The notes: a model not told the origin generated them from the letters alone. DNA of 64,000 nucleotides from Anaerolineae bacterium (GCA_034419095.1 DAOULQ010000005.1:1024-65023); one strand, 5' to 3'. Positions 9,322 through 48,574 are shown, counted from the first letter of the stretch. Program-made: numbers and translations.

Positions 9322-9560
9322 TCATTAAAAACCCCTTCCATCTCCAGGACGGAAGGGGCCGCGGTACCACCTCGATTCCGGCTTAAACCGGCACTCTTCG
9401 CTATAACGGGCTCACCCGAGAGAACTTACTTATCGTTCACTCCTCTGGCTCCCAGGCGACCTTCAGCGGCTTTCGTTGCGGGGGCTTTCAGCCACTGGCC
9501 TCCCTTCTCTACCAACCCCGGTCCGCTTACTCCTCCTGTTCATCGCCTTTGCAGGGTTTG
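9322..9560 (-). promoter_or_regulatory. T-box riboswitch leader of valS (candidate Val specifier GUC)
   Basis: The minus strand carries the conserved T-box sequence GGUGGUACCGCGG (plus coordinates 9359-9371), which overlaps a terminator. Upstream are an AGAGA-type GA motif (GGUAGAGAAGGGA) and GAAGGUCGCC containing GUC (plus 9458-9460). Confidence 0.8.
9327..9360 (-). terminator. intrinsic terminator of the T-box leader
   Basis: Minus strand reads CCCCUUCC-GUCCUGGAGAU-GGAAGGGG followed by UUUUU. Confidence 0.8.
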
Positions 9561-11561: not shown

Positions 11562-11636
11562 GCCCCTATAGCTCAGTCCGGATAGAGCAGTGGTTTCCTA
11601 AACCATGTGTCGCAGGTTCGAATCCTGCTAGGGGCA
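11562..11636 (+). tRNA. tRNA-Arg (anticodon CCU)
   Basis: GCCCCTATAGCTCAGTCCGGATAGAGCAGTGGTTTCCTAAACCATGTGTCGCAGGTTCGAATCCTGCTAGGGGCA. The cloverleaf pairs and the anticodon loop is TTCCTAA. Confidence 0.92.
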
Positions 11637-13150
11637 CCTTCCGTTCCACCGTCCTCGAGCGGGAAGGAGTAGGTCAGCACTCCGTAGTCTCGATACACCT
11701 CGATCCGCTGCACCATCCTCCTGAGATACTTGCGCCCCTCCATGCCTCCTTGCGACAGCGCCTCATGCAACCCTTCTAAGTATGCCACGATTTGATCTTT
11801 TGTCAAGTTCGGTACCTCAGGTTGGCCAGCCTCCAGCTGCGCTAAGCGACTGAGAACCTGAGCCTTCTCGTGCTGGCGCTCTTCTATCCTCTTGCTGATC
11901 TCCTCCCTGAGCCCTCCCACTTCCAGACCCTCGATGAGGTTCTGAATCTTCCTCTCCAGGGACCGCAGCTCCTTCTTCAGCCCCTTGATCGTCTTTTCGG
12001 CATCATCCGTCTCTTGGGAGAGGGCCGCGTTGGCCTCCTCCACCAACCGGGTGACGTGCTCGTCGGTCATCGACTCCTTCAGCTTCTCGATGATCGCGCT
12101 CTCCAACGCACGGGCCCCGGTCTTCTTCGCCTTGGCACAGGCTTCCGCTCCTCTACGCTCCTTAGTGGAGCAGCGATAGAAGACCCAGCCCACCCTGCGA
12201 CCCTGGTGCCTATCCACGCCGCCATTCATGGGGGCTTTGCAGTACCCGCAGTAGACCAGACCTGAGAGCAGATAGGGACTGGCCCTCCGGCGGGGATGAT
12301 CGTGAGGATCCTTCGCTTTTGGACTCACTTTGCGCCTCCTAGATTGAACTATGTCCCAGGTCTCCTGGTCGATCCTCGCAGTGTGGGCATCGGGCACCTC
12401 CAGCTCTCCACACTTCCGGATGCCGAGATACGTCTTGTTAGTCCACATGCTGCAGTAGCAGCCCATGTTCTTGAAGATCCGCGTCTTTCTGTGGATCTCC
12501 CTGTCGCTGTGGCCTTCACGCTTCATCTGCCAGGCCAGGCCTACCCGGTCCCAGTATTCGGGATCGGGAACCCAGCGGCGGACCTTTCTCTTCCCGTCTC
12601 CCAGTTGGATCTCCATTTCTTCGGCCTTGTACCCACGAGGAGGGAAACCACCTGGGGCGTAGCCAAGTTTGGCGATGGTGTGAAGGCCCCGCTTGATGGC
12701 CTTGGCTTGGTCTTTCAACCGCTGGGCGTCTTTCCAGTGGATCAGGGACTCTATGATGTACCTCATCCCCCGGTCTTCGACGGGCACATCGTCGGTGGCG
12801 GAGATAACCTCGATACCTAGCCTGCGGAGATCCGCCTTGAAAAAGTGGGCATCGTCCTCGTCTCTGGCGAAACGAGACCAGGAGAAGAGGATGATGGCGG
12901 CAGGCTTCGGCTCCACCTGGTGTGCCTGGTAGATCATCTGGTTAAAGTCGTCTCTCTTCACCACGTCGCTGCCGGGCTTCGCCTCGTCGACAAACCAGCG
13001 GGTGATGACCAGGCCGTGGTCTCGACCCCAGTTCTCCATGAACTCGCGCTGACTGACGATGGTGCCTCTCTCTTGCTGCTCCGGGCCCGAGACGCGGAGA
13101 TAGGCCCAGACGGAGGAACCGCGAGGTAGTGGGGAACCTTGATTAGTCAT
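11573..13150 (-). CDS. large serine recombinase (resolvase domain + recombinase domain + zinc ribbon + coiled coil); 3' end overlaps tRNA-Arg antisense
   Basis: 525 aa. N-terminal resolvase motif AYLRVSGPEQ (catalytic Ser). CGYCKAPMNG...YRCSTKERRGAEAC zinc ribbon, then a long coiled coil. The last ~21 codons (GAPSRIRTCDTWFRKPLLYPD) are the reverse complement of the tRNA. Confidence 0.88.
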   Translation of the reverse strand: MTNQGSPLPRGSSVWAYLRVSGPEQQERGTIVSQREFMENWGRDHGLVITRWFVDEAKPGSDVVKRDDFNQMIYQAHQVEPKPAAIILFSWSRFARDEDDAHFFKADLRRLGIEVISATDDVPVEDRGMRYIIESLIHWKDAQRLKDQAKAIKRGLHTIAKLGYAPGGFPPRGYKAEEMEIQLGDGKRKVRRWVPDPEYWDRVGLAWQMKREGHSDREIHRKTRIFKNMGCYCSMWTNKTYLGIRKCGELEVPDAHTARIDQETWDIVQSRRRKVSPKAKDPHDHPRRRASPYLLSGLVYCGYCKAPMNGGVDRHQGRRVGWVFYRCSTKERRGAEACAKAKKTGARALESAIIEKLKESMTDEHVTRLVEEANAALSQETDDAEKTIKGLKKELRSLERKIQNLIEGLEVGGLREEISKRIEERQHEKAQVLSRLAQLEAGQPEVPNLTKDQIVAYLEGLHEALSQGGMEGRKYLRRMVQRIEVYRDYGVLTYSFPLEDGGTEGAPSRIRTCDTWFRKPLLYPD

Positions 13151-13222
13151 CGTTTGCTGTCCAGATTCTTGCTGTGCTCTGTTCCTTGGTTGAGACGCCG
13201 GCCCAGATGACGGTACGAACGG

Positions 13223-13885
13223 TTATTGTGGAAGCTGTGACCGTTCCGGTAGATATATGTTGAGAACCCTTATTGCTTCATCCAATCGCTTCACAAGGAA
13301 CCCGCATTGCCATTTCATGACCTCACATATCCTTTCGCGGTTTTTCTTCGCCGTGCTGAGGCTTTGAGAAATCCCCACAGAGAGATCTATTAGCAAAGGT
13401 AAGAGCACATTGATGTCCTCGATTGTGGTATACACGTGAAGCAATGGAAAGAGCAACTCAGCGGGGATATTATCTAATAGCGGGCCCGAACTGACGGATC
13501 TCCAGCCACCCGTTGGGAGGGGGTTGGTGGGGATCCATCCTTCTTCCAGGCCTGTCTCCAGCCATTCGGTGACTTGCGACTGCGTTTTGTGGAGCTCGGA
13601 ACGCAGTAGTTCTAGGACTTTTCTTGCCTTCTCGGCCTTCTCTTCAGCTCTAGCTCTGCGCTCCAACCATCCTACGACCAAGACACCGATGGCAATAGCC
13701 ACCAGGAGGTCAGACAACAGGTTGGCAGAGAACTGTTGTGCCCAGTTTGGGCTCCTTCGAACCCCGATAGTCCACAGCAGTATCATGGCCAAAGCCACCA
13801 TAGTTAACCAAAACCACCATTGAGCCCAGAATCGATTCCGTGGCCTCACGCTCACACCCTCACATTCCTTCTTCCACTCTGCCAC
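13223..13885 (-). CDS. hypothetical 2-TM membrane protein with cytoplasmic helical domain
   Basis: 220 aa. Two N-terminal hydrophobic helices followed by a coiled-coil segment. The GTG start lies inside repeat R1a, so the start is uncertain. Confidence 0.5.
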   Translation of the reverse strand: MAEWKKECEGVSVRPRNRFWAQWWFWLTMVALAMILLWTIGVRRSPNWAQQFSANLLSDLLVAIAIGVLVVGWLERRARAEEKAEKARKVLELLRSELHKTQSQVTEWLETGLEEGWIPTNPLPTGGWRSVSSGPLLDNIPAELLFPLLHVYTTIEDINVLLPLLIDLSVGISQSLSTAKKNRERICEVMKWQCGFLVKRLDEAIRVLNIYLPERSQLPQ

Positions 13886-13922
13886 CAGATGGTGAATACC
13901 CCTGGTGGGTGATTGAAGTGCT
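13853..13922 (-). repeat. R1a conserved intergenic element
   Basis: Plus strand reads CACACCCTCACATTCCTTCTTCCACTCTGCCACCAGATGGTGAATACCCCTGGTGGGTGATTGAAGTGCT. Near-identical blocks at 16085-16154 and 20331-20400. Confidence 0.85.
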
Positions 13923-14425
13923 CAGCCTCGGTGATTGTTGTTCTTCTCCGCCCTTGCTCTAGCACGAGAAATATATCCCCCCTCGAAGCTAGCAACGTAC
14001 TGATCGAACGGCGTATTGGGATCTATCTTGTCTTTGTCATGGTAGAGCCTACGAAAGCGACGGCATCTATTGATCATGTTCTTCGAGATCCCTAAGTCCC
14101 GTGTTAGATGTTTGACCATTCCGTCCAGGAAGAACATGCCATCCTCGTATTTACGCTCATATTGAAAGATCCTATCACCCAGCTCCCAGTACAAGAACAC
14201 TCTCGGTTGGCCGCCATTCTGATTTGCGAGCGAGGCGAGTATTCCTCTCAAGTCATCTATCAAGTCCCAATATCCCTTCTCAAGAGATTCGAGAAGTGCT
14301 TCGACGTCGTCGTTCGTGACTTCTTCTTGGAATATCGAGGCAACCGGTATGGTTGCCCTAACGGTTTCCTTGCCGTCCGGCGATCTGATCTTCTGGACCT
14401 TGAAGCCGATTCTTATTTGTGTCAT
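13922..14425 (-). CDS. YhcG/DUF1016 N-terminal-like helical protein (no nuclease domain), partner of the GHKL ATPase
   Basis: Start set at MTQIRIG. Its ATG overlaps the upstream TGA (ATGA coupling). The segment LYWELGDRIFQYERKY...MVKHLTRDLGISKNMINRCRRFRRLY resembles the DUF1016 N-terminal module. Confidence 0.6.
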   Translation of the reverse strand: MTQIRIGFKVQKIRSPDGKETVRATIPVASIFQEEVTNDDVEALLESLEKGYWDLIDDLRGILASLANQNGGQPRVFLYWELGDRIFQYERKYEDGMFFLDGMVKHLTRDLGISKNMINRCRRFRRLYHDKDKIDPNTPFDQYVASFEGGYISRARARAEKNNNHRG

Positions 14426-15957
14426 TGCTGCTCTCCCCAAAGAGTGAAAACCTGGCCCATGAGATCGAAGGCCTTTTGACATGATGGTTCGGGATCGTGG
14501 TCCATCGAGAACCTTGTAAGTTCTACAGCGGTGGTCTTCAGGACATGGTAGTTTGCTGCTTCTCGTGCTCTAGAAGATCTGACATATGCAGGATGGGCCG
14601 TGTTGATGACAATCGTCTCGCCATCGAACCACCCTTCATTTGAGAGATCGGCTCTCTCCTCAAAACCCAAACGAATGCCCCCACGAATGACGCGCCGATG
14701 TACCTCGGCTCGTCTTCCCTCCCCAGGTTCGACTGTCGGTGCAACCCCTTCTTCTGGCCCTGGGTAGACATCAATTCCTTCTCCGGTTCCCGGTCCTCCT
14801 TCTGTTCCGGGAGCCTTTTGTGTTCCGCTACCGAGGCTTCGCTCCTCCCCACTCTCGTCAGGGATTGCAGCACGCGCTACTCTGCGTGCTCCGAAGAAGG
14901 TCAATGATGGGATTTGCTTGAGTATCCGGTTGATTTCCCGTTCCAGCTCAGGGAATACAAGGGGTCGTGGTTCTCTCTTTTCTAGGAGCCCTGCGCCCTC
15001 CAGCCATATTGCGAATTCCTTCTGTGCCCGGCGAAAGAAACCCTCCCAATTCTTGTTTCCCCTCTGGAATCGGCATTTGTCCGTTGTGACAGCTTTGATA
15101 AGATATGGAGCCTCAATCCATCCGAAGATTCTATCCTTATGGCGTGGCTCCTTCTTGAACCACGTCCGCTCTATGACCTTCCCATAGGTCGTTACGGCCA
15201 CCCCCTGAAGATGTTCGGGGAGCACCTCTTCTGCTAGCCCAAAGAATCCCCATCCCTGCGGTTTCTTGTAGCGAAGGATGGAGAACTCTTTCCGATGATT
15301 CAATGTCGTTTCGATCGGGCCACTAGTGATGACTGAGGCGTTCACCACGAACTTCAGGCCTTTCCGGTACTGCTCACGATACACTTCAAGCCTGCCCCTG
15401 CCGCCCTTTAGCAGGGGACGGTCTCCGGTATAGACCTGGACTAATTGCGGATCAAGTAGTGGGAAATAATGGTCTTCGAGAATTTGCTTTACTAGAGTAG
15501 GTGTATAGAATGACTTGCGATCCTTTTCCAGATATAGAGAGACTCGCGTTCCCGTCCCCGACAGTGTTCTCTCGTCAATGTAACGATATGGTGCATCATC
15601 ACCCTCCAATCTCCATATCGTTGCATCATGATAGTTCTTGCTGCGAGTCTCACTGATGATTCTATCGCAGAAGTTCAGTGCCAGTTTGGCGCCCTGCCCT
15701 GCAAAGCCGATTCCGGCACCTCTTTCCTTAGTGGTGGTTGCGAAATCGTGGTACTCCTTGAACTGCTTTCGCGTCATTCCAACACCGTCGTCGGTTACTC
15801 GGAGGATTGCATCTGAAATCTGGATGTCGATTACACGAGCTTTGGCGTCAAGTGCATTCGCTACTAGTTCGATCAGGGTAGCGACCTCGGGTTCGAAAGG
15901 ATATTGGTCCGCAATGTTTTGAGCCAGTCTTCGGATATTTACACCACTCTTCGGCAT
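14422..15957 (-). CDS. GHKL-superfamily ATPase (HATPase_c_3 / MORC-like)
   Basis: Start set at MPKSGVN with GGAGGAGG 8 nt upstream. Bergerat-fold motifs ELVANALDA (N box), DDGVGM (G1) and GIGFAGQGAKLA (G2). Long C-terminal region of unknown function with a Gly/Pro/Glu-rich linker. Confidence 0.8.
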   Translation of the reverse strand: MPKSGVNIRRLAQNIADQYPFEPEVATLIELVANALDAKARVIDIQISDAILRVTDDGVGMTRKQFKEYHDFATTTKERGAGIGFAGQGAKLALNFCDRIISETRSKNYHDATIWRLEGDDAPYRYIDERTLSGTGTRVSLYLEKDRKSFYTPTLVKQILEDHYFPLLDPQLVQVYTGDRPLLKGGRGRLEVYREQYRKGLKFVVNASVITSGPIETTLNHRKEFSILRYKKPQGWGFFGLAEEVLPEHLQGVAVTTYGKVIERTWFKKEPRHKDRIFGWIEAPYLIKAVTTDKCRFQRGNKNWEGFFRRAQKEFAIWLEGAGLLEKREPRPLVFPELEREINRILKQIPSLTFFGARRVARAAIPDESGEERSLGSGTQKAPGTEGGPGTGEGIDVYPGPEEGVAPTVEPGEGRRAEVHRRVIRGGIRLGFEERADLSNEGWFDGETIVINTAHPAYVRSSRAREAANYHVLKTTAVELTRFSMDHDPEPSCQKAFDLMGQVFTLWGEQQ

Positions 15958-16084
15958 TGCTCGTCCTCCTCCACGCTCCGAGTTCTGCATGTCTTCCGGC
16001 AGGGGTGAAGCTAGTTCCGCTAATCTTCGTTTGTCCGGCCTTTTCCTTCAGGCGTCAGCATTGCATCCCCACTTGGTGGGTGCC

Positions 16085-16154
16085 CACACCCTCACATTCC
16101 TTCTCCCACTCTGCCACCAGATGGTGAACGCCCCTAGGCAGATGATTGAAGTCC
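16085..16154 (-). repeat. R1b conserved intergenic element
   Basis: Plus strand reads CACACCCTCACATTCCTTCTCCCACTCTGCCACCAGATGGTGAACGCCCCTAGGCAGATGATTGAAGTCC. Lies between the MTase stop (16181) and the GHKL start. Confidence 0.85.
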
Positions 16155-16180
16155 AGCTCGTTGTATCCTGACTGAACATC

Positions 16181-19100
16181 CTAACTCAACTCCTCAAGCG
16201 AACGTTTGATCTCTGCTAGTTCCTTATCGGTGAAGCCCCAGAGTTCTGCGGCTTTGCGGTCTATCTCCTCCTCGACCTGCTTTAGGGCTTCCTTCTCCCC
16301 CTTGGCGGCCAACTCATGAGCACCCTGGGAGAGGGCGGAGAGTTCCTGGTGGAGAGGGTTCTGGGGATCGAATTTGGGGATGTCAGCATATTCCAACAGG
16401 TGGGCAGAGGCGAAGCTCTTGCCGACGGAATAAGACCTTGCTATGAAATCGACAATGGAGGAATTCAGCACCGTAGATAAAAAGTGAGCTTCCTTGTGAT
16501 CACTTGCTTCCACGAACAGTACTGTGTTTTTGTGAATGGGCACCTTTTCGCCGACGAAATGATCAGCAAATGGCGTCACAACGGCGGCCTCTAGGCTTGG
16601 GCCCATAGACTTCCAAATGACCTTGCTAGTCGCGAAGGTGTATGGCCCAACGTTATAGATAGAATAGAACGGGTCTGACTGGGGATCAAAGTACTTCTTG
16701 TATCCGCTTCTCTCCCTCAAAATGTGCTCAAATTGCTTGAGGTAAGAATAAGTGTTTGGCAGTTCCACCTTCAGCCATCTTTCGTCATAGCCCACCCTGC
16801 GGTCCGGGTCTTGCACCATGAGAATATAGAAGGAAGGCTTTGCGGAAAAGGGACTAACGTTCTTCCATGGGATGAATGGGTAGACCAGCGTGGGCTCTAA
16901 TACAGCCTGCACCTGCTTAATATCTTTCTTGCCAAGCTCTGGCAAATTCTCAACAACCAAGAGTCCATCTGAACGCTTTTCAATAATCCGAAGCCAATAG
17001 ATACCATCGGCCCATGTAGTTGCCCCTGCCCTCGCTTGGTATTCAGATGAGCCAAAAGCCCTACGGATGGCGCTAATGGCCTTTGCCCTTGCGGTGAACC
17101 AGGGAGCTGTGGGCTGAGCCGCGCGGACCGGTTCTGCTTGGAAGTGGCTTGTGGTGGTAAGTTGCTTCACTTCCTCAAGAGAGTTATCCACTCCCAGGCT
17201 AACCCTTTTTCTCTTGCGCCAGAGTGTGTAGGGAACTGGATATGACGTGGAATGGCCCTTCTGTAGCACGATCACGCTGGTCCAATTTGAAGCCCCCTCA
17301 AAAGGCTGCAAGGCCACCATGTCGTCCACATGAAGCACCCGTAAATCGGCCCCTTCCTCACCCAACTTGAAGCGCCGAAAGCCATCCCCGGCCCCTTTGG
17401 TCTTGAACAGCGTTTGCGTAATGACAAAGCCCAATTTACCCTTATCCTTCAAGTAATGGTCTATGCAGGCATAGGCAAAGAGCGCCGCTAAATCTTTCTT
17501 TCCGCCGCCAAGCCTAGCGCGCCAGCCTTTGAGGCTAAAGAGACCATAATCCACCCAGAGGGGCTTGGTGGCATCCCTGTACTCGTCAGACAGGCTCTCC
17601 CAGTTGACCCAAGGAGGATTGCCCACGACGTAGTCAAAGGGCTCCTGGAAGATAGGAGCAAAGGCGTTCTTGAGAATACGAGCCCAGATGCGGTTGCGTC
17701 CCTCCTTTTCAAGTTGCAGAAGCGTTTGGTATAGTGAAGATAGACCAGTGCTCGTGGCTCCCTCCTTGAAAGCGAGTTCACGCTCTGCTCGCTCCAGGAA
17801 CTCCTTCTCCTCGTACTGGCTTTTCACGCATTCCTCTAGTAATTGACTGAGTGCATCCATTTGCCTATTAACAATGATCTCCCTAGGCATCATAAATTTG
17901 CCTGCAACAGTGGTAATCACTGGGCCTTGCTCAAATAGGCCTGGTTTCAACGGCTCCGAAGGCGTGAGGATGGAGTCGCACATGTAAACAGGGATAGTGA
18001 TGGGGGAGATGGCCCGGCGGAGATTACCGAGAGCCAGAAGATAGGTAGTCCGGGCGGCGATGACCGCTATAGGGTTGAGATCGAAGCCCACCACATTTTT
18101 CAACACCTTTTGAGCCACATCTGCGTACTCCAGCAGTTTCTCGTCGGCGTATTCGCGGATACGCTTGATAGCCAGAGCCAGGAAAGTGCCGGAGCCGCAA
18201 GCGGGGTCTAAGAGGCGGAGATCAGGGTTGCCGTCGTAGCCAACTTGATTTAGAAGGCGTTCAGCAAGCCAATCGGGAGTATAGTATTCGCCTAAGTCAT
18301 GGCGAAGTTTCTTAGGGACCAGATATTGATAGAGTTTCTTCAAGAGGTCACGAGTGGCTTCCGGGTCTATCTCAGCGGTGGCGGGCTCAAAGTCGGATAG
18401 ACGACGGGCCATGCGGCGAATGGCCGCGCTAACATCTCCATTCCAGTCGGCGAGATACCAACCGAAGAAGTCGCCTTCCAGAAAGTTCAGGATGCCGAAG
18501 GCCTGAAAGTGCCCGCCATCCTCAAGGTTGCTAAGCTGGCTTTGCAACTCAGCATCCGAAAGTGCAGCCAGTTGAGTGACGAAGGAGGGAACATACGACT
18601 CAGGCTGAAGGGAGAGGAGTTCAGCGACGAGAAGTTTCATCAGAAGAGCGTAGTAAGTGTGGACGGCGAAGAGCAAGGGCTTCAATTCTACCCGCATGTC
18701 TACGCCGTACCTCTTTGCCAATTGAGCGGCGTCCTTCTCGGCTTTGCTTATATCTTGCCCGTAGACAATGCCAAAGATGCGGTCCCACTCTTTGAAAAAG
18801 GTATCGACCTTGGGGCTCTTGGAAGCCAAAAGCGTCTGGTAGAAGGTATTCACGGCTTGGCGAGCAGTTTCAGCGTCGGGCCCGAATTCCTTGGTTAGTT
18901 CCTCTGGGGTGAGAGGATAGCGGTGGAGGGCGCGGATATAGGTAAGGAATAGTGAGATGGTCTGGGCATTAACCGGATTAGGTCCATCGAGGTCAAAACC
19001 GCCGGGGAGGATTGCTTCAGGCAAGAGAGGGAGTTGAGCACTGGGTTTCCTCTTGGGAAAAGGTACTTTTGCCCTGGCCTTGGTGCCAGTGTATCGCACG

Positions 19101-19477
19101 AAGAGTATCTGAAATCCGTCGAGGGAGACGCCGACCATCCTCTTCAAAGCGGCCTCTTTCTGCTTCTCTCCATGGCGCGAGGCCTCGGCGTCGAGATATT
19201 TGACGAGTTGCTCAATCGTCTCCTCTTGTCCCCTCTTGCTCTTGAGTTTGCCTGGACGCTCGTATTCGAGAATTAGGTGGCCGTGGATGGCATCATAGAA
19301 AGAGGTACTGGTGGCTTTCTCATATCGAGGCTCGGTAGTGATGTCGAGGGCTTTCAGCACGGGATCGAGGGCTTTTTCCACGCCGATGCGAAGGTCCTCC
19401 TCTGTATCGGCTCGCTTAGCTACTGTGAGGATGTCTTTCGCCAATTGCTCTGCCAAGGGTTGTCGCTTGTTGATCAC
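16181..19477 (-). CDS. large gamma-class N6-adenine DNA methyltransferase (Type IIG/IIL- or PglX-like architecture)
   Basis: 1098 aa. Motif I LDPACGSGTFL, motif IV VVGNPPWVNWESL, and a long C-terminal TRD-like region. The N-terminal segment FYDAIHGHLILEYERPGKLKS resembles an MmeI-type D-x(8-9)-E-x-K nuclease motif but reads E-Y-E. Confidence 0.85.
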   Translation of the reverse strand: MINKRQPLAEQLAKDILTVAKRADTEEDLRIGVEKALDPVLKALDITTEPRYEKATSTSFYDAIHGHLILEYERPGKLKSKRGQEETIEQLVKYLDAEASRHGEKQKEAALKRMVGVSLDGFQILFVRYTGTKARAKVPFPKRKPSAQLPLLPEAILPGGFDLDGPNPVNAQTISLFLTYIRALHRYPLTPEELTKEFGPDAETARQAVNTFYQTLLASKSPKVDTFFKEWDRIFGIVYGQDISKAEKDAAQLAKRYGVDMRVELKPLLFAVHTYYALLMKLLVAELLSLQPESYVPSFVTQLAALSDAELQSQLSNLEDGGHFQAFGILNFLEGDFFGWYLADWNGDVSAAIRRMARRLSDFEPATAEIDPEATRDLLKKLYQYLVPKKLRHDLGEYYTPDWLAERLLNQVGYDGNPDLRLLDPACGSGTFLALAIKRIREYADEKLLEYADVAQKVLKNVVGFDLNPIAVIAARTTYLLALGNLRRAISPITIPVYMCDSILTPSEPLKPGLFEQGPVITTVAGKFMMPREIIVNRQMDALSQLLEECVKSQYEEKEFLERAERELAFKEGATSTGLSSLYQTLLQLEKEGRNRIWARILKNAFAPIFQEPFDYVVGNPPWVNWESLSDEYRDATKPLWVDYGLFSLKGWRARLGGGKKDLAALFAYACIDHYLKDKGKLGFVITQTLFKTKGAGDGFRRFKLGEEGADLRVLHVDDMVALQPFEGASNWTSVIVLQKGHSTSYPVPYTLWRKRKRVSLGVDNSLEEVKQLTTTSHFQAEPVRAAQPTAPWFTARAKAISAIRRAFGSSEYQARAGATTWADGIYWLRIIEKRSDGLLVVENLPELGKKDIKQVQAVLEPTLVYPFIPWKNVSPFSAKPSFYILMVQDPDRRVGYDERWLKVELPNTYSYLKQFEHILRERSGYKKYFDPQSDPFYSIYNVGPYTFATSKVIWKSMGPSLEAAVVTPFADHFVGEKVPIHKNTVLFVEASDHKEAHFLSTVLNSSIVDFIARSYSVGKSFASAHLLEYADIPKFDPQNPLHQELSALSQGAHELAAKGEKEALKQVEEEIDRKAAELWGFTDKELAEIKRSLEELS

Positions 19478-19554
19478 CGGTTGCTCCTTCTCCCCCTGTC
19501 ACCCTCCCGCAGAAGATCTGACCATCAGGCACACCAGAATATCAAATGTTTTGT

Positions 19555-20217
19555 CTATGTAACGGTGCCAATCTCCAGCACGTGCCCAATGTACTCTCGG
19601 AGCACTTTGACATCTTTGTTCCTCAGGTAGTCCTTGTCAGGCCAGAAGGGATTTAGGCGCGATACGTATCTTAGGTCAGGCAACTCGTCGCCGATCTTCA
19701 AATGTGGTTGTTGATGATCATCCACTTGAACTTCAACGAGTTGGAGGTCTGGTGGCGTGCCGTTAGCCAGGAGAGCAGCAAACAACACCGGCAATTTGGT
19801 CTCCTGTACGAGGTTGCGTGTCTCACGAAGGCGTCTTACTATCTCCTCTTCATTGAGCTGAGCACTATAGCAGTGCCAAAGACACACCCGATCGAAACCG
19901 AATCTAAGCAAACCTATTGCTTGCTCAAGACCGAGGTAGGTCGGGAATCTCCCGCTAGCCACGGGGATGAATTTCAGCTCTATTGCAATCCAGAAGTTGT
20001 CTCGGATAACCAGTAGGTCAATATCCGGCTGGACCGGCGGGGGAATACCCTCATACTGACTGTTCCAATAGTCAATGAACTTCTTTGACGTCAATCTCCG
20101 GCGGCAGAAGATCAACTTGTAGTCGCCAGTCTCTTCGAGGCGTTTGGCAACTTCGTGTGCGATGACACTCTCCGTCAACTCCTGTCTGGCCACGGACCCT
20201 GTTTCAGCTTCCATCAT
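19555..20217 (-). CDS. PD-(D/E)xK nuclease-fold protein (candidate restriction partner)
   Basis: 220 aa. PDIDLLVIRDNFWIAIELKF gives a D...E-x-K signature. Lies immediately upstream of, and co-oriented with, the MTase (78-nt gap). Confidence 0.6.
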   Translation of the reverse strand: MMEAETGSVARQELTESVIAHEVAKRLEETGDYKLIFCRRRLTSKKFIDYWNSQYEGIPPPVQPDIDLLVIRDNFWIAIELKFIPVASGRFPTYLGLEQAIGLLRFGFDRVCLWHCYSAQLNEEEIVRRLRETRNLVQETKLPVLFAALLANGTPPDLQLVEVQVDDHQQPHLKIGDELPDLRYVSRLNPFWPDKDYLRNKDVKVLREYIGHVLEIGTVT

Positions 20218-20226
20218 CCTCTATCT

Positions 20227-20280
20227 CTACTTGCCGTTGTTTACTGCCTCCAACCCTCCCTACTTCCCGAAGACGATTCC
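20227..20280 (-). repeat. R2-1 conserved upstream element (diverged copy)
   Basis: Plus strand reads CTACTTGCCGTTGTTTACTGCCTCCAACCCTCCCTACTTCCCGAAGACGATTCC. It aligns with R2 at 24305-24362. Ends ~10 nt upstream of the PD-(D/E)xK start. Confidence 0.65.
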
Positions 20281-20330
20281 GCTCCGTGTTCATTGCTCTC
20301 ACCCTGCCGCAGAAGAGGCGGGGCCTCGGC

Positions 20331-20400
20331 CACACCCTCACATTCTTTGCCCATTCTGCCACCAGATGCCCAGCCCCTAGCAGTAGGATGATTCCAATCC
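20331..20400 (-). repeat. R1c conserved intergenic element
   Basis: Plus strand reads CACACCCTCACATTCTTTGCCCATTCTGCCACCAGATGCCCAGCCCCTAGCAGTAGGATGATTCCAATCC. Lies just after the stop (20418) of the 1264-aa gene. Confidence 0.8.
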
Positions 20401-20417
20401 CCTTCTGGGCTAAGGGG

Positions 20418-23400
20418 CTAAAAGTCACGTCTTTCTTCTTCAATTCTTGCCCGTTCAATCTGTTGATCCAATGAAGACACGTACTCATCAATCCAGCCCT
20501 TCACACTTTCGTTGTCTTCTCCTTTTTTGAAATCAAGCAATCGTTGTTTTTTCCCTTGATAGTGCAAGCTTCGCGGCCCTGTCCAGCCTTCTGTTGAGAA
20601 GTTTGCCATTAGATTCCGTCGCACATCTTCTCTTGATCCATATCTCGCAAGAACTTCTCTTGCTATACAGATTCTTCCCTCCTCTCGAAAAAGCACTTTA
20701 GGAGCAAAACTGGCTAGGTACCAAGCGCGATTCTCCACATCCTCATCAACCCATTCCCAGATTCTCTCCAAAGGAATCATAGCCAGTGCTCCTTCACTTC
20801 CCGTTTCAAAGAATTGGCCACCTCTTAGCCATTCCTTTATGCCAAACGCTCGTGAATCTATCGGCGGCCCCAGGTATCTTGTCGTCAGAGCCCAGACTTC
20901 TTTTGGGTATCGTCGGGTAATTTCGTTAAGTACAGCTTGAGTGCGCGAGTGGAAACCCTCGACAATTGTGCCCTCTTCTCCGAAATGCTCGAGGATTCTT
21001 TCTCCAAGGTGCAAACCTTTTTCCGGATAGAGTTGGACAAACGCCTTCCCGATTTCCACCCAATTGTAGTCATCCATTTGATCGCGTCTGCCTGCTTCAG
21101 GCTTTTGAAACAATGCTGTGTGCGTCAGAAGTTTCAGGGTTAGTTCTTCTGGCAAAGTGTGCTTGGACTCCTTGGCAAGATAGTGGGAGCGGTACAAATC
21201 CAGTGCAATAGAAGCAGCGTGAGCGTCGGAATCACCAAGTAAGAACTCAATGCAGTTCTTGAAGACATCCTCAGATAGGTCTCGAATAGCACCCCCTAAA
21301 ACAAGCATCCGGAACTGACCAATGCCAATGATACCTTTTTCTGCAAGACCCAGGATACGCAGAGCCGCTTGATCAGAAATTCCCGACCGCCAGGTCAATT
21401 CAGGAACCCAACCGTTCAAGTTTTCATCTTCGGTGAGAGCGTCCAATTGGTCTTCCCATTTCTGTTGATCCTTCTCAAAGAGCGCGCGAAAATACCCCCC
21501 GAGGAAATAGACGCTTGCGCTCTTGCCTGCCCTTCGCTGCGCTTCGAGAAGTATCGGCAAGAGCGAGAAATCCATATCTCTCTTTCCCAGTTCATATCCA
21601 AACCGGTAGCCGTTCTGCGCTTCCGTTGTCAGAAGCCAGTCTAACTCTGGCCGCAGTAGGTCGCTCTTTTCAATTGCTTGTGTGGCCAACTCTTCAATTC
21701 TTGGTTGCGTTTGGTCTACATAGTTGCCTTCCTGGTCAAATCTGTCTTCCAAGAGATCCATGGCCACATAGCGCTCCATAAGCGAGGAAAAATCGCTGCC
21801 GGTAAGGTCGTCTCTGAGTTCTTCCCAACGCTGACGTACTTCTGGCGGCATCTCTTGGCCGTCATAACGTAGAATCTGAACGACCTTAGCGAGTACCTTC
21901 TTGCCATCTACATAGGGTTTTCCTCTTAGTTCGTCCACGGTTTCAATGACCATGTCGGTTAAGTTCAGAATCCTGGCTAACCCTCTCGCGCGCTGGAGAA
22001 GGATGTTGACTGCTTGTTGTTGCTCATCTTCTGGCAGACTATCTAACCGCTTGCATAGCAATTGCCATACTCGCCGGTACCCATCAAATAACTCCCTGTA
22101 TGTTTGTGGCGTCCAAAGCTGAGGCTCCTGTCGCAGTCCTTGCCGTTCAGCACCAATCATCCGGGTGAAAAACTGTGACTCCAATGCCCGATCACAAGCA
22201 CGCAAGGCAAGAAGCCTCCTGTCTTTTGAACTCGACTCAAAGGCTTCCTTGAGAACAGGAAAGCGTTCCTGCGGAGAAGCCTCTGTTGGGGCAACCCGTC
22301 CAGGGCCTAGAGAAAACAGTTCTGCAAAAACGCCACTGGCATTGTTTGACCAGGTTTCGTTTTCTGCCTCTCCGAGGGCTAGAAGCAGCCTTGCTGCATC
22401 CGCAAACAAGTCCCGCCACATTGCGATCTTCTCAAGGGCCCATACTACCTCCCTCCGACCCGTTGTGAATTTCAGAAGATCCTCTTTGCTCCAGGTTCCA
22501 ATTGTGTTCTTCAGACATTCCAATGCTGACCCCGGATCGGCTTCTGAAAGAGCCTGAAAGAACTGTGCGCCCGGGCTTGATCTCAAGTAGTTGCCAGTTC
22601 TGAAAGGGCCCCTTTTGTCCAGAAGCTCTCGACCGATACCAGACGCAACCTCAGACTCAGCCGCATACTTAAACATCTCGTAGAACCACTCAAGCAGTTT
22701 CGGCCGCCAACCTCCGGAGAAATCCTCTAGATCGAATGTGTCGCCGTAGGTATTCCACCACCTAGTCCACAAGTAGATATGGAGTGCTTTGGGTGTGATG
22801 TAGAGCGTATTCTCACCTTGAAGAATCCGCTTCGCCTTCAAATCATGGATGATCTCCTGAAACCTTGGCCAAGTGATCTGAGGGTCCGCCTGTTCAACCA
22901 TCTTGGCTATCGCTTGTGCCTCAGCGACAACTGGCCGTCCATAACCGAACCGCTTGAAAAGCGCAATGTGTTGGAGCACCAGTCGCCTTTGTCGCACCTG
23001 TTGGCTATCTGGATCATCTCCGGCCACAATGTAGCGATTCCATACATCGACAGTAGCGGGAGCTCTTAGCAGATCCTCTGGGTGGTTTTTCAAGTTCCAC
23101 CCGATGACATGGGCAACTCTGGGAGAACCACTGCACAAATCCGCCCACCGGTCTGCCTTGTCTTTGGGAATGCCATACTCTTGAATGATGCTACTTATCT
23201 GTTCTTCTTGTAGCGGCGCCGCATCAAGGTAGGTTATATCGCCAGCAGTCCGATCGTACTCGCTATAGATCGAGACAAGTTTGATCCTCGGACTATGATA
23301 TTGGAGTTTGTTCCAGATATAGGATCTGCTATCTAGATCGCATTCATCGATAACCAGAATAGCGAAGAAAGGATTGTCATCTCTCAGGATCTCATACATT

Positions 23401-24212
23401 AGGTTGCTATCTCTGAACCGGCTCGCGCTGTCACAATAAACAACCAGTGGCTGTAGGTCCTCTGCGCGCGTTGCCTCCAGTACGAGTCTCGTCTTGCCGA
23501 TTCCAGGCTCACCCCATACGTGTATATGAACGGGCGCGCCGTTCTTGCGCAATTCGCTTTGAATACTCAATATGCGGTCTTCTTGTGTCTGACCGATCTT
23601 CAATGGCCTTCTCATCTCGGATTCCCGAGACCAACTTCGATGTGTCTGAAACCCTAGTCCTGTCCGTCCCGTCAATTGCAGCGCCAATGATGGAAATGGC
23701 TTGAGGAACCCAATGAGGGTGTTCTGCCGCCATATCTCGATCTTTGCATCCTTGTACCTACGATCTATATCGGCCAGTTTCCTCTTGAACTTGTCTTTGC
23801 AATAGTCGTCCGTCACGTCTGGATTGTCCCAACCGAACAGTACCACAACCAATGTTCCGTTCTTCTCTAGACATGACTTCACCCTCGGTCTAAGTTCGTC
23901 GGAGCCCTCTCTAAACAAGATGCTTCTGATATCACTCTCTCTGGTCGGAGAGAGGTCACCAGTCTTGATTTGGTAACAAGTTAGGCCTTGTCTAATGATT
24001 CCCTGTCCACCACTAATCTGAACATCTTGTACTTTCCCATCTACGCCACCGTCCGCAACAGTAATTGCACTCGGTACCTCTATGAGATTCTTTCCGATTC
24101 CAAGAGCCGTCCCTTCTGCCCAAAGCAACTCACGGAAAAAGTTCACAGCCTCTTGAGGGCTCAAGCGCTCCAAGTCTTGATTCCTTACTGAGAAAATCGT
24201 GTCCATGCTCAC
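20418..24212 (-). CDS. Avs-like STAND NTPase: Mrr-like PD-(D/E)xK N-terminal domain + P-loop NTPase + long helical-repeat C-terminus
   Basis: 1264 aa. N-terminus FFRELLWAEGTALGIGKNLIEVPSAITVADGGVDGKV...CYQIKTG matches the Mrr-cat pattern (DGGxD ... QxK). Walker A VWGEPGIGKTRLVLE, Walker B ILVIDECD, and ~900 aa of helical repeats. Confidence 0.7.
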   Translation of the reverse strand: MSMDTIFSVRNQDLERLSPQEAVNFFRELLWAEGTALGIGKNLIEVPSAITVADGGVDGKVQDVQISGGQGIIRQGLTCYQIKTGDLSPTRESDIRSILFREGSDELRPRVKSCLEKNGTLVVVLFGWDNPDVTDDYCKDKFKRKLADIDRRYKDAKIEIWRQNTLIGFLKPFPSLALQLTGRTGLGFQTHRSWSRESEMRRPLKIGQTQEDRILSIQSELRKNGAPVHIHVWGEPGIGKTRLVLEATRAEDLQPLVVYCDSASRFRDSNLMYEILRDDNPFFAILVIDECDLDSRSYIWNKLQYHSPRIKLVSIYSEYDRTAGDITYLDAAPLQEEQISSIIQEYGIPKDKADRWADLCSGSPRVAHVIGWNLKNHPEDLLRAPATVDVWNRYIVAGDDPDSQQVRQRRLVLQHIALFKRFGYGRPVVAEAQAIAKMVEQADPQITWPRFQEIIHDLKAKRILQGENTLYITPKALHIYLWTRWWNTYGDTFDLEDFSGGWRPKLLEWFYEMFKYAAESEVASGIGRELLDKRGPFRTGNYLRSSPGAQFFQALSEADPGSALECLKNTIGTWSKEDLLKFTTGRREVVWALEKIAMWRDLFADAARLLLALGEAENETWSNNASGVFAELFSLGPGRVAPTEASPQERFPVLKEAFESSSKDRRLLALRACDRALESQFFTRMIGAERQGLRQEPQLWTPQTYRELFDGYRRVWQLLCKRLDSLPEDEQQQAVNILLQRARGLARILNLTDMVIETVDELRGKPYVDGKKVLAKVVQILRYDGQEMPPEVRQRWEELRDDLTGSDFSSLMERYVAMDLLEDRFDQEGNYVDQTQPRIEELATQAIEKSDLLRPELDWLLTTEAQNGYRFGYELGKRDMDFSLLPILLEAQRRAGKSASVYFLGGYFRALFEKDQQKWEDQLDALTEDENLNGWVPELTWRSGISDQAALRILGLAEKGIIGIGQFRMLVLGGAIRDLSEDVFKNCIEFLLGDSDAHAASIALDLYRSHYLAKESKHTLPEELTLKLLTHTALFQKPEAGRRDQMDDYNWVEIGKAFVQLYPEKGLHLGERILEHFGEEGTIVEGFHSRTQAVLNEITRRYPKEVWALTTRYLGPPIDSRAFGIKEWLRGGQFFETGSEGALAMIPLERIWEWVDEDVENRAWYLASFAPKVLFREEGRICIAREVLARYGSREDVRRNLMANFSTEGWTGPRSLHYQGKKQRLLDFKKGEDNESVKGWIDEYVSSLDQQIERARIEEERRDF

Positions 24213-24304
24213 GTCATCTCCTAGCCTCTTCTCATCGTCCTCGACTCTGCGCTAACACAGAACACGGACCGATGACTCCACCCAAACATGCCACGCGCCA
24301 CCTG

Positions 24305-24362
24305 CCAAACCACTTACTGAGTACTGCCTCCTATGCTCCCTTCCCGAATAGACCACTACCCC
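24305..24362 (-). repeat. R2-2 conserved upstream element
   Basis: Plus strand reads CCAAACCACTTACTGAGTACTGCCTCCTATGCTCCCTTCCCGAATAGACCACTACCCC. Lies ~93 nt upstream of the Avs-like start and overlaps the stop codon of the CI-like repressor gene. Confidence 0.8.
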
Positions 24363-25051
24363 TTCATCTTCGCTCTATACGATCCCACTGCGACACCCAG
24401 CACCCGCGCATCTTTCAATCGGAGGATGGGATAACCCTGATTGCCGGCCTGCAAGTGGGGCCCCTTCGCATCCTCTTTGTATATCCTCAACACCACGTCC
24501 TCGTCCTTTCGCGCCACGACTACATCACCAGGCTGAGCCTGACGTTTGGCGTCAACGAAGATCACATCCCCATCCAAGATCCGGCGTTCGATCATCGAGT
24601 CTCCCTTGACGCGGAGAGCGTAGGCACCATCTCGCTTCTTGATCTGTTCAACTGAGCAGGGATAGAACTCCTCGGCTTCGTGTTCTTCTTGCCATTCGGG
24701 GTAGGTGGCGGGGACCGTGCCGATCAGCGGCAGGAAGATCCACTTTCCTGAGTAGGGAAAGACCTCCTGAAGGCGCTTCCGTGTTTCTTCAAGCACCTTC
24801 GTTGCCTTGCGAATTTCAGCCTGGATCTGATTGTCGTAGCTTTCGCGGCCAAGCAAATAGTTAATTGACACAGCATAATGATCGGCGATTTTTTCAAGAT
24901 CCTCAACACCGATCCTTCGGCGGCCAGCTTCATATCCGGCTACGGTTGCTTGGCTGTGGCCAAGATGGGCGGCCAGTTCCTGCTGAGTCTCACCGTACCG
25001 TTCTCTAATGTCCCTGATTCGGCTGCCGATAACTTTGAATCTATCCATCAT
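24356..25051 (-). CDS. CI/LexA-like repressor (XRE HTH + S24 self-cleaving peptidase domain)
   Basis: 231 aa. HTH region TQQELAAHLGHSQATVAGYEAGRR. C-terminal S24 motif LRVKGDSMIERRILDGDVIFV...VVARKDEDVVLRIYK. Confidence 0.85.
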   Translation of the reverse strand: MMDRFKVIGSRIRDIRERYGETQQELAAHLGHSQATVAGYEAGRRRIGVEDLEKIADHYAVSINYLLGRESYDNQIQAEIRKATKVLEETRKRLQEVFPYSGKWIFLPLIGTVPATYPEWQEEHEAEEFYPCSVEQIKKRDGAYALRVKGDSMIERRILDGDVIFVDAKRQAQPGDVVVARKDEDVVLRIYKEDAKGPHLQAGNQGYPILRLKDARVLGVAVGSYRAKMKG

Positions 25052-25078
25052 ACGTGCTCCTCACGGAACGTCATACTC

Positions 25079-25084
25079 ATTATA
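25079..25084 (-). promoter_or_regulatory. candidate -10 box (TATAAT on minus strand) for the repressor gene
   Basis: Plus ATTATA is TATAAT on the minus strand, ~25 nt upstream of the ATG. The -35 region is weak (TGTCAA). Confidence 0.35.
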
Positions 25085-25116
25085 GCACAAACTACCAGAT
25101 TTTGACACTAACCCTC

Positions 25117-25145
25117 TTGACAGTTCAATGACATGGTGTTATAAT
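25117..25145 (+). promoter_or_regulatory. consensus sigma-70-type promoter facing rightward (TTGACA-17 nt-TATAAT)
   Basis: TTGACA at 25117-25122, a 17-nt spacer, TATAAT at 25140-25145. Divergent from the repressor gene. Three TGACA(C/G/T) half-site-like words at ~25103, 25118 and 25129. Confidence 0.65.
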
Positions 25146-25194
25146 CTTTATAGCGCTCAGCACTAGCATTTCTTTTGTCTCCAATTAGGACAGT

Positions 25195-25386
25195 ATGTCA
25201 TGCAAATTAGAGCGCAAGGGAATAATGGAGAGTGAAGCTCGCAGGTCCACGGTGGCTTGCATCGTGACCGAGCATGATCAGGCAGTCATTGAAGCGCTGG
25301 GCTTTCTGAGGAGGAGCACCATCAGCGACGTGGTCTATGCCTGGACCAAACTGTTGATTGACGAGGCGGAGAAGGCACGGAAGTGA
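25195..25386 (+). CDS. small ribbon-helix-helix-like protein (Cro/regulator analogue); start may be M11 at 25225
   Basis: 63 aa. The STVACIVTEHDQAVIEALGFLRRSTISDVVYAWTKLLI pattern is strand-helix-helix. First gene downstream of the consensus promoter. Confidence 0.45.
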   Translation: MSCKLERKGIMESEARRSTVACIVTEHDQAVIEALGFLRRSTISDVVYAWTKLLIDEAEKARK

Positions 25387-25694
25387 CCCCGGCTAGACAC
25401 AAGAAAGGCCCTGGCCCAAAGCGTGCCAGGACAGGCGAGCCCTTTCCCCTTGTGGTCCACGGTGGGGACAGGTACCAGTCCCTGGACGAGGCCATGGCTG
25501 CTGGCCTTCCGATCCTGGGGAAGATCATCGCCGACTTGGCACGCAGGGACTGGCGCCCTGCCCCGGTACTTGCCAACCCGGGGAGCCAGGCGAAGGGCAT
25601 AGACGATGGGCAGGAGAAGGAAGGAGTTGGAATCCTTTCTGGAGGTGATGGAAGGTCAGTACCTATAATCCCTGGAGGGGATGGAGAGCTTTGA
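25383..25694 (+). CDS. hypothetical protein (weak call)
   Basis: 103 aa. GTG overlaps the previous stop (GTGA). Gly/Pro-rich with no recognisable motif. Confidence 0.25.
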   Translation: MTPARHKKGPGPKRARTGEPFPLVVHGGDRYQSLDEAMAAGLPILGKIIADLARRDWRPAPVLANPGSQAKGIDDGQEKEGVGILSGGDGRSVPIIPGGDGEL

Positions 25695-28733: not shown

Positions 28734-28734
28734 C

Positions 28735-29556: not shown

Positions 29557-29679
29557 TTTTGAACCACCTTTGTTGTTTGTCTTAAATCGAGTTACTATTT
29601 CAGTAACATCATGCAATATGCTTAACCAATTATATCGCCACCTCCCTCTGTTTGCAAGCCCGCAAGGCAAGGGGTTGTG

Positions 29680-29900
29680 CTCACCAGTCAACGCCTGGCT
29701 CACCTTGCGTAAGTGTTGCTCCCCAGGCTGCCCTCCCCTGCCCTGCCTGTCCTGGCGCTTGACAGGCCAGGGGCACGTGGCAGGCCAGGGACCCTGTCGG
29801 CCTGTCCCGGTACTTGTCAGGCCGGGGGTTCGGCCCAGTCCTGGCGGAAGTGGGCCAGGGGACAGGGCGTGGCAGAGCAGGCAGGACAGGCAGAGAGGAG
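29680..29900. repeat. REP-like cluster (GCCAGGGG / TGTCCTGGC word family)
   Basis: Read directly: ...CCTGTCCTGGCGCTTGACAGGCCAGGGGCACGTGGCAGGCCAGGGACCCTGTCGGCCTGTCCCGG...GGGCCAGGGGACAGGGCG... The same words occur at 11330-11380 and 1428-1790. Confidence 0.7.
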
Positions 29901-33253: not shown

Positions 33254-33289
33254 GGGATCTTTCAGAAGCAGAACCCAACAAGGCAGAGC

Positions 33290-39023: not shown

Positions 39024-39081
39024 CCAAACCACTTACTGTCTATTGACGCCTATGCTCCCTTCCCGACTCAACTACGACCCC
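39024..39081 (-). repeat. R2-3 conserved element
   Basis: Plus strand reads CCAAACCACTTACTGTCTATTGACGCCTATGCTCCCTTCCCGACTCAACTACGACCCC. Lies 70 nt downstream of the PIN stop and ~510 nt upstream of the Hhe start. Confidence 0.8.
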
Positions 39082-39151
39082 AAGGATGCACACTGATCGC
39101 AATCGCTTGATTTCAGAAGATCCTCATGTGTTCTGTGTTCTTGTCCAGTTG

Positions 39152-48034: not shown

Positions 48035-48058
48035 GCCGCTAACAAGAAAGGAGGCCAA

Positions 48059-48538: not shown

Positions 48539-48574
48539 GGGATTCGCGCAAATGAGTGTCATGTAGGTAGAGCA

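Follow-up and report, generated by a model that had tools for sequence, protein, structure and literature searches.

Reiterated gene-junction remnants between defence gene blocks of an Anaerolineae serine-integrase element as a candidate seam for module exchange

Results

Gene content of the locus

The stretch analysed in this work (hereafter the window) comprises 64,000 nucleotides (nt) from Anaerolineae bacterium (GCA_034419095.1, DAOULQ010000005.1:1024-65023) and carries, next to a large serine recombinase gene, a set of defence genes punctuated by three direct copies of a short element of about 70 nt designated R1. It is argued below that R1 is probably a recycled gene junction, which would offer the homology needed for swapping modules at a defence hotspot of phage type. 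The coding strand of R1 is the minus strand, and all the genes from position 25051 down to 11573 are directed the same way. The block starts with a gene coding for a helix-turn-helix (HTH)-Peptidase_S24 (CI/LexA-like) repressor (24356-25051, minus strand) and ends with the gene of the 525-amino acid (aa) recombinase (11573-13150, minus strand), which contains Resolvase and Zn_ribbon_recom domains and is thus of the serine and not the tyrosine type, as the first-pass annotation of the sequence had proposed.

About 11 kb of defence cargo is located between these two genes, and the order towards the integrase is repressor, unit 4, R1c, unit 3, R1b, unit 2, R1a, unit 1, a recombinase relic and the integrase itself. 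Unit 4 (20418-24212) codes for a 1264-aa PD-Lambda-4_A-like NTPase, unit 3 (16181-20217) for a 220-aa protein and a Type IIG restriction-modification (R-M) enzyme (1098 aa; PADLOC E=0), unit 2 (13922-15990) for a GHKL ATPase (522 aa) and a DUF1016_N-like protein of 186 aa that weakly matches PADLOC PDC-S02, and unit 1 (13223-13855) for a membrane protein of 210-220 aa with two transmembrane (TM) helices, hereafter the 2-TM protein, all on the minus strand. Both the partition of the cargo beside the recombinase into four units and, roughly, their gene content had been described in the first-pass annotation and agree with the Pfam and PADLOC searches.

On the far side of the repressor gene lies a predicted divergent pair of near-consensus sigma-70 promoters (25079-25145), with the elements TTGACA-17-TATAAT and a TG on the plus strand (12/12 matches) and GTGTCA-18-TATAAT on the minus strand (10/12), the latter pointing at the repressor-cargo-integrase block. 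It is followed by a Phage_rep_O/DnaA_N replication-initiator gene (26133-27185, plus strand), so that the pair, placed between this gene and the repressor gene, looks like a phage-type immunity switch. No virion genes were recognised in the window. Judging from its gene content, the region is the immunity and integration module of a temperate phage-type element with the cargo inside it.

The integrase open reading frame (ORF) runs about 66 nt into a tRNA-Arg(CCT) gene (11562-11638, plus strand) on the opposite strand (11573-11638), ending in the C-terminal tail ...SRIRTCDTWFRKPLLYPD. Since its last 22 or so codons are antisense to the tRNA, the attachment (att) junction is assigned to that end, probably at or near the 3′ end of the tRNA-Arg gene, the integrase C-terminus presumably being altered by integration in comparison with the phage-form homologues (462 aa). 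No partial second copy of tRNA-Arg was found within the window, and a search for attP at the 3′ ends of related integrase genes revealed no nucleotide similarity to the tRNA region in contigs L046, L050 and L009 (L numbers denote the related contigs used in this work). Between the 2-TM protein gene and the live integrase gene there is a 70-nt relic that once encoded the N-terminus of another serine recombinase (13157-13226, minus strand; TVIWAGVSTKEQ..., reading TVIWAGVSTKEQSTARIWTANDD*). It is homologous to the sequence found right after R1 in L052 and L012 as well as to L009, and it is fused to the R1 core in L028, which suggests a past swap of the integrase module.

The R1 copies of the window

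Alignment with MAFFT and a repeat finder both recovered the three same-sense copies reported in the first-pass annotation at 13853-13922, 16085-16154 and 20331-20400. They are situated 0.7-8.8 kb inside the element. A minus-strand ORF ends 0-26 nt before each of them (stop codons at 13922, 16181 and 20418) and the next gene comes after it, which agrees with the layout initially proposed. The core reads CATCTGGTGGCAGA(G/A)TGG-N5-6-GAATGTGAGGGTGTG on the minus strand; its blocks CATCTGGTGGCAGARTGG and GAATGTGAGGGTGTG occur exactly three times each in the 64 kb, always within R1, the chance expectation for the 18-mer with up to three mismatches being 0.12 matches.

Two further features attributed to R1 at first were not retained. 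The degenerate copy suggested at about 38870-38930 aligned poorly and gave no profile match, and that stretch turned out to be part of a different conserved intergenic segment, which rules out a fourth copy there. The small palindrome CACCA-GA-TGGTG of the core is missing in R1c and in many members of the family, which have CAGCATCTGG or CATCTGCTGG instead, and was dropped as a functional feature. A resemblance to Chi (CTGGTGG) was also discarded, as about a quarter of the copies read CTGCTGG and the strand bias of the motif in the window is weak (10 vs 15).

R1 derives from the end of a small membrane-protein gene

Approximately one third of the R1 copies collected from other contigs and the window carry a longer common part upstream of the core, and this part has the signature of a coding sequence: the pairwise diversity among 13 long copies is 0.30 at codon position 3 but 0.16 at position 1 and 0.12 at position 2. 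The long copies translate to ...NYHPRIYRYSEDVTILQVGDSELDFNHPPGAFSIWWQSGRRNVRVWPR*, and the frame of the corresponding gene, which codes for a single-pass membrane protein of about 77 aa and is hereafter referred to as class A, reads ...FWAVFLSIAIIGTITWLAIFEHNYHPRIYRYSEDVTILQVGDSELDFNHPPGAFSIWWQSGRRNVRVWPR*, with the stop codon (TGA, TAG or TAA) kept at 39 nt past TGGCAG. From these comparisons, R1 is recognisably the last 50-95 nt of the class A gene including the start codon of the gene that follows. A protein search with the class A ORF led to at least 90 clusters (91 were returned), mostly of 74-77 aa and some labelled as originating from Anaerolineae metagenome-assembled genomes (MAGs). 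In the AlphaFold model, whose mean predicted local distance difference test (pLDDT) score is 74.5, residues 6-31 at the N-terminus form a TM helix and are followed by a small domain of five β strands, the score of the β domain being only 60-70. Class A was not assigned to any family in Pfam, and searches of the GenBank phage collection, by DNA and with the class A protein, gave no match.

Against a profile of the full class A gene (302 positions), the copies of the window are frameshifted or truncated relics. R1a (13846-13922, profile positions 226-299) is a relic of the 3′ end whose terminal GTG (13855-13853) shares its frame with the downstream 2-TM ORF. R1b (16080-16176, positions 202-295) is the longest one; it begins about 5 nt past the stop codon of the Type IIG gene and retains the ...ELDFNH... 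codons along with a frameshift. R1c (20323-20400, positions 224-300) is the most eroded and has a 1-nt deletion within the core. All three are on the minus strand and are pseudogenised. The proposal that R1 is conserved at the DNA or RNA level and has no common frame therefore stands for these three copies but not for the element in general, which descends from the C-terminal codons of class A.

Native position beside the integrase gene

The homologues P0004 (49% identity), P0003 (57%) and P0002 (47%) of the window integrase are encoded on phage-like contigs, and some of the contigs bearing such homologues also hold lysis or tail-type genes. In L046-49 and L053-55 the repressor and integrase genes are adjacent. 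In L046-49 and L053/54, whose integrases are 49-57% identical to that of the window, the S24 repressor gene is followed by an ORF for a 56-aa TM protein, an uncalled gap of about 190 nt and the integrase gene, and this gap is an intact class A ORF, the stop of which overlaps the start of the integrase gene (...ATCTGGTGGCAAAGCGGTAAAAGGAATGTGAGAATATGGCC, including the integrase ATG). In L055 it is a 55-aa ORF that extends into the start of the integrase gene, and the search for class A gave no match in this contig. The class A tails of the six contigs differ from R1 by synonymous (CAG>CAA, AGT>AGC, GGG>GGT, AGG>AGA) or conservative (R>K, V>I) changes, a pattern of ordinary protein-level constraint. 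GTG GCC at the end of R1 corresponds to the integrase ATG GCC, and in L052 and L012 R1 is directly followed by ATG ACC CT(T/C) CGC ...ATC ATC TG., that is, by a recombinase N-terminus. R1 is thus identified, by its sequence, as the junction of the class A and integrase genes in reiterated form.

A serine recombinase gene is also located downstream of R1 in L009, L035 and L052. In L057-L059, by contrast, no integrase gene was called up to 10 kb away from the class A genes and R1 relics, and the neighbours of the intact genes and relics are LysM-TPR-SLT, Trans_reg_C, NucS_C/ScoMcrA_N-like and Type I R-M genes. Small Trans_reg_C (winged-helix) proteins are encoded directly downstream of R1 or class A in L028 (1586-1990), L035 (946-1263) and L057 (7276-7575), the L035 gene being placed directly upstream of a truncated integrase gene; such a recurrent protein could be a regulator or a recombination directionality factor.

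Distribution of R1 and variation at its edges

Exact-pattern scans detected the R1 core in two Chloroflexi/Anaerolineales MAGs among 185,579 species genomes, a collection that does not include the source genome of the window, as well as in one IMG/VR contig (L009) and in 31 metagenome contigs. The two MAGs are represented by L002, with three copies in 8 kb, and L003, with two in 4 kb. The cargo at these loci includes Type IIG R-M enzymes, TPR-CHAT proteins, BREX neighbours, LysM proteins, small Trans_reg_C proteins and many proteins with no assigned function.

The closest comparison is provided by L052, which is 88-91% identical to the window at the nucleotide level over the valyl-tRNA synthetase gene, the tRNA genes, the integrase gene and the RepO-AbiE side. 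The region 13226-25427 of the window, with the three R1 copies, all the cargo and the repressor gene, is replaced in L052 by 2.3 kb consisting of one R1 core abutting the integrase-proximal recombinase relic and a Type I R-like gene pair. Unit 1 is absent from L052, the 2-TM protein gene being an insertion in the window with its left end exactly at the last bases of R1a (GGGTGTG|). The check suggested along with the first-pass annotation thus shows that relatives do differ in cargo, with one breakpoint falling exactly at the 3′ edge of R1a. A GC-rich repeat (CTGGCGCCCTGCCCCGGTACTTGCCAACCCGGGG) is found at 25550-25583 and 29794-29827 in the window, and one copy of it in L052 lies at the right-hand breakpoint of the differing block. 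L052 also has about 5 kb of extra sequence, including a gene for a Type IIG-like methylase (923 aa), between a gene for a 451-aa MazG/TP_methylase protein and tRNA-Pro (between the counterparts of window positions 11309 and 11441), a second variable spot beside the same tRNA cluster.

Across 43 R1 copies, the flanks fall into 25 upstream and 34 downstream clusters. One downstream sequence stands behind four distinct upstream contexts (L023, L043, L016, L024), and one upstream context may precede at least two downstream sequences (L016 vs L029, L024 vs L041, L039 vs L033). BLAST similarity stops within or at the core in the pairs L024/L041, L016/L029, L039/L033, L039/L015 and L034/L024.

A second module with similar behaviour is the 5′ leader of class A (CCTCTTCTGCGGCAGGGTGAGAG and the start codon), which recurs alone upstream of other cargo genes and also follows R1c. 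The segment after R1c (20247-20322, minus strand) comprises two matched sub-segments: 20296-20322 matches CCTCTTCTGCGGCAGGGTGAGAG, located just before the class A start codon in L030 and L043, and 20247-20280 matches an intergenic segment of L009 (6901-6934). L024 and L041 differ in a cargo swap of about 1.1 kb that has R1 at one end and the leader module at the opposite end. The extra class A fragments at these loci are almost exclusively boundary modules (profile positions of about 231-301 or 26-96), the middle of the gene being found as an extra fragment only twice, both times in L003.

Conservation of the core

The near-invariance of the core in L010-L045 is partly due to the fact that these contigs were retrieved by exact matching to the core. 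An independently found set of intact class A genes shows an identity to the consensus of 0.74-0.87 in the core and 0.79-0.86 in the rest of the gene, and the C-terminal tail is not the best-conserved region of the protein. Within the relics the core shows 74-96% identity, and the sequence upstream of it about 50%, which is the background level. The idea that the core is hyper-conserved and hence selected was withdrawn, since it arose from a pattern-picked sample and the core does not stand out in the independent intact genes. At its 3′ end, the boundary of R1 shifts by about 12 nt between copies, and its 5′ extent ranges from 50 to more than 220 nt. An apparent clustering of relic 5′ ends, taken at one point as a sign of site specificity, is weakened by a possible further upstream motif in the relic-type copies: by eye, L016, L024, L026, L027 and L035 seem to share a diverged sequence ...CTTCCGCAG..TCA.CATCTGG.

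Structure, symmetry and expression signals

Folding of the three copies as DNA or RNA, on both strands, was no better than that of shuffled sequences (z-scores from -0.42 to +1.85), and the consensus fold of 16 diverse copies had an energy of -3.8 kcal/mol with 0 compensatory pairs and no covariation. With Rfam 15, R1 had no match at the gathering score in the window, and the region 13100-25300 gave nothing even at E<=1. The window has 14 terminator-like sites, all of them outside R1, which has no GC-rich stem followed by a T run, and no promoter-like site was predicted inside any copy. The best dyad of the core has 7 of 13 complementary pairs; the composition of its strand is G23/A11/T11/C7, and with such an excess of G over C it cannot consist of symmetric half-sites like those on which serine and tyrosine recombinases act. 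No terminal inverted repeats or inverted-repeat structure were found in R1. It has no similarity to tRNA-Arg either and therefore is not an att duplication of the ssrA-island kind; a tRNA-like origin was rejected on the same grounds, together with the lack of a second tRNA-Arg fragment in the window.

Other features of the window

Besides R1, there is a second family of purine-rich intergenic repeats (GGGGTnGTnGTCTATTCGGGAAGGGAGCATAGG...CAGTAAGTGGTTTGG) on the minus strand at 24291-24374, 39010-39093 and 40284-40328, the first following the repressor gene and the other two flanking a gene for a PIN_12 protein (39152-40246, minus strand); this family may represent another junction or leader module. 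An element of about 250 nt (59817-60100 and 62600-62699), with no Rfam match in the window, has copies about 73-83% identical in L002, L003, L057 (two copies), L058 and L059 and is often located near class A or R1 loci. About 850 nt are duplicated at a distance of some 14-15 kb (32412-33258 vs 46367-48543), the pieces being 78-94% identical, and part of this dispersed duplication falls within a spore-photoproduct-lyase-like radical-SAM gene (46763-48034). A T-box leader (103 bits; 9342-9552, minus strand) is found upstream of a 922-aa Val-tRNA-synthetase-like gene, the L052 counterpart of which has the Val_tRNA-synt_C domain, and tRNA-Phe, tRNA-Pro and tRNA-Arg are clustered beside it. Further defence-like cargo deeper in the island includes, in addition to the PIN_12 gene, a gene for a 1595-aa DUF4011-helicase-MTES_1575 nuclease protein (33723-38510, minus strand) and AbiEi/AbiEii genes (27837-29967).

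Discussion

R1 as a recycled gene junction

The interpretation we favour, with a probability of roughly 0.6, is that R1 is a recycled junction of the class A and integrase genes and that modules of a phage defence hotspot are exchanged along this seam by means of homology. In the window the element is integrated at tRNA-Arg and has accumulated its defence genes within the co-directional repressor-to-integrase block, each cargo block being headed by a truncated and pseudogenised class A tail. As these tails and the leader modules are the only sequences common to the unrelated cargo, they would be the seams where modules are gained, lost and exchanged when related elements recombine through homology or microhomology. 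Short sequences that could offer microhomology are CACCATC(ATC)TGG, present in both the class A tail and the recombinase N-terminus (the two being fused in L028), and GGGTG(T)GAG, common to R1 and the leader module. Where R1 stands directly upstream of the next ORF, it may also supply a leader, a re-initiation signal (a Shine-Dalgarno-like purine run) and a start codon within a lysogeny transcript that probably spans the cargo as a polycistronic message, a possible reason why the tail survives while the rest of class A erodes.

Several points weigh against this interpretation. In most copies, the GTG at the end of the core opens only a short ORF of 5-68 codons and the cargo starts 14-270 nt further, so a direct role of R1 as the ribosome-binding site of the cargo is not general. 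Homologous recombination alone leaves the first joining of cargo to R1 unexplained, and the 2-TM indel between L052 and the window has no flanking repeat. Co-transcription from the repressor promoter is argued from the absence of predicted signals. As the core of intact genes shows no excess conservation, its near-invariance elsewhere is no safe sign of selection, and the relics may be truncated copies free of constraint.

Part of the same evidence could be explained if R1 were purely an expression element (a leader, a short upstream ORF or a re-initiation site) in a long lysogeny transcript and played no role in recombination, the shuffling of cargo being nothing but ordinary mosaicism that selection filters at gene boundaries. 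R1 is always oriented like the genes around it and is located 0-270 nt upstream of the next ORF, predicted promoters and terminators are absent from it, and the other surviving type of class A fragment is a pre-start leader as well. In addition, R1 contains GGGAGAAGGA...GAGGG and, after it, a GTG or ATG with which the integrase gene (L046, L053), the Trans_reg_C gene (L057), the 2-TM ORF of the window and a 328-aa ORF in L023 actually start. Nevertheless, most copies begin short ORFs only and stop-start coupling to the cargo is inconsistent, ribosome binding does not need 45 or more conserved nucleotides, and the frequent breaks of inter-contig similarity exactly at the element are left unexplained, so we regard this account as rather unlikely. 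The suggestion that R1 is a shared terminator or insulator, an island-specific repetitive extragenic palindromic (REP) element or miniature inverted-repeat transposable element, or a small-RNA gene (for example, antisense to the class A tail in the manner of a type I toxin-antitoxin system) draws on its being intergenic, repeated and strand-consistent and on class A being a small membrane protein like type I toxins. It is contradicted by the folding energy on either strand, by the weak consensus structure with no compensatory pairs, by the lack of a stem with a T run and of an Rfam match, and by the distribution of R1, which is not scattered over genomes as a REP would be and lacks terminal inverted repeats: it occurs in single contigs of the two MAGs in the species-genome collection, and all the window copies belong to one gene block, although the assembly to which L052 belongs holds copies on a second contig (L057). 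We consider it very improbable.

The analogy with attC and other recombination sites, drawn in the first-pass annotation from the cassette-like layout, fares somewhat better than the terminator and REP proposals and less well than the expression account. It implies that R1 is a true site-specific site and that cassettes of R1 with its cargo are excised and inserted, in an integron-like platform, by a dedicated enzyme, be it the large serine recombinase next to them or a different one. In at least eight independent contigs, units of one to three genes are bordered by direct repeats of similar size (e.g. single-gene units in L003, L028, L029 and L034), and flanks combine freely, with breakpoints in a core of 31-46 nt, about the size of a serine-integrase att site. 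Serine recombinase genes lie downstream of R1 in the window, in L009, L035 and L052 and in the L046/L053 phages, and the cargo is diverse and defence-rich. However, the core is strongly asymmetric and shows neither hairpin nor covariation, the junction of the integrase itself is assigned to tRNA-Arg at the opposite end of its gene, the boundaries of R1 shift at the 3′ end and even more at the 5′ end, class A and R1 occur at loci where no integrase gene was called nearby, and the element is demonstrably a decayed coding sequence. It is accordingly unlikely that R1 is such a site, and equally unlikely that R1 and the class A leader together are recognised by dedicated machinery for cassette exchange that builds and shuffles defence-gene arrays in phage-derived islands of Anaerolineae. 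Such a mechanism could involve the neighbouring large serine recombinase acting on a non-canonical asymmetric site, or some other enzyme that duplicates its target upon insertion, and, if real, would do the work of an integron while having a coding junction as its evolutionary source. If R1 is a dedicated recombination site, a new cassette system is at hand; if it is not, the locus is a clear but incremental example of hotspot mosaicism.

Comparison with known systems

Large serine recombinases act on att sites of about 40-50 bp with an imperfect dyad around a central dinucleotide, and R1, in contrast, is asymmetric and lies off the junction of the element with the host. The ssrA-targeted islands of Dehalococcoides, also from Chloroflexi, which McMurdie et al. 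are said to have described in 2011, reportedly stand in tandem beside a serine recombinase gene with direct repeats between them; those repeats are said to repeat the 3′ end of ssrA, the target gene, and thus to be att-site duplications, whereas R1 is unlike its target tRNA-Arg, from which it is separated by the integrase gene. In cluster K mycobacteriophages, which are temperate, the start-associated sequences (SAS) and extended SAS (ESAS) represent a conserved and repeated 13-bp motif directly upstream of several start codons; unlike R1, SAS is not a gene relic and is linked neither to cargo boundaries nor to module exchange.

The modular evolution of phages was reportedly formulated in the module theory of Susskind and Botstein, and short conserved sequences at gene boundaries are said to have been reported in lambdoid phages such as HK620. 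These linker sequences, short and conserved at gene boundaries with unrelated modules on either side, were proposed to guide homologous exchange. R1 differs from them in being a recognisable coding relic, in occurring in several direct copies per element and in being tied to defence cargo; it would be a concrete candidate for the linker long postulated for modular phage evolution, and one from a poorly studied phylum (Chloroflexota/Anaerolineae).

The likeness to integrons consists in the co-oriented, mostly promoterless units of one to a few genes with a repeat between them and a recombinase gene at one end, and in the cassette content of the window differing between relatives at the repeat boundaries, as L052 and the flank combinations show. 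R1, however, has none of the imperfect inverted repeats of the attC type, no folded single strand and no R′ and R″ boxes; there is no tyrosine IntI, the serine recombinase gene is at the promoter-distal end of the array, and the repeat is derived from a coding sequence. Defence systems are included as cargo in integron cassette arrays too (bioRxiv 10.1101/2024.07.02.601686).

The closest known kind of locus is the defence hotspot of P2-like and P4-like phages and satellites, where variable anti-phage cargo is rapidly swapped at a fixed position between core genes (Rousset et al. 2022, PMC9122126; PMC13586616). In these hotspots, small intergenic pseudogene remnants were read as scars of intense recombination, and homologous recombination, which would require flanking homologous genes, was discussed as one candidate mechanism for the swaps (PMC13586616). 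Similarly, the cargo of the window occupies a fixed position between the repressor and integrase core genes of a temperate integrative element and is enriched in defence genes (Type IIG R-M, PD-Lambda-4-like and GHKL), with the Type I R-like pair in their place in L052. The differences are that the host is a member of Anaerolineae, that the integrase is a large serine recombinase, that the hotspot is inside the repressor-to-integrase block and that the scar is one specific reiterated piece, the tail of one core gene with the next start codon, heading each block.

In the P2/P4 work, which bears on how defence systems are exchanged so fast in phage and island hotspots, only anonymous remnants are seen (PMC13586616). 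Class A tails may be used as a sequence handle, as scanning for them finds mostly unannotated cargo genes, which are candidates for new defence systems. What is new here compared with the known hotspots is that the remnant is identifiable, reiterated and coincident with the breakpoints of exchange, in a serine-integrase element of Anaerolineae.

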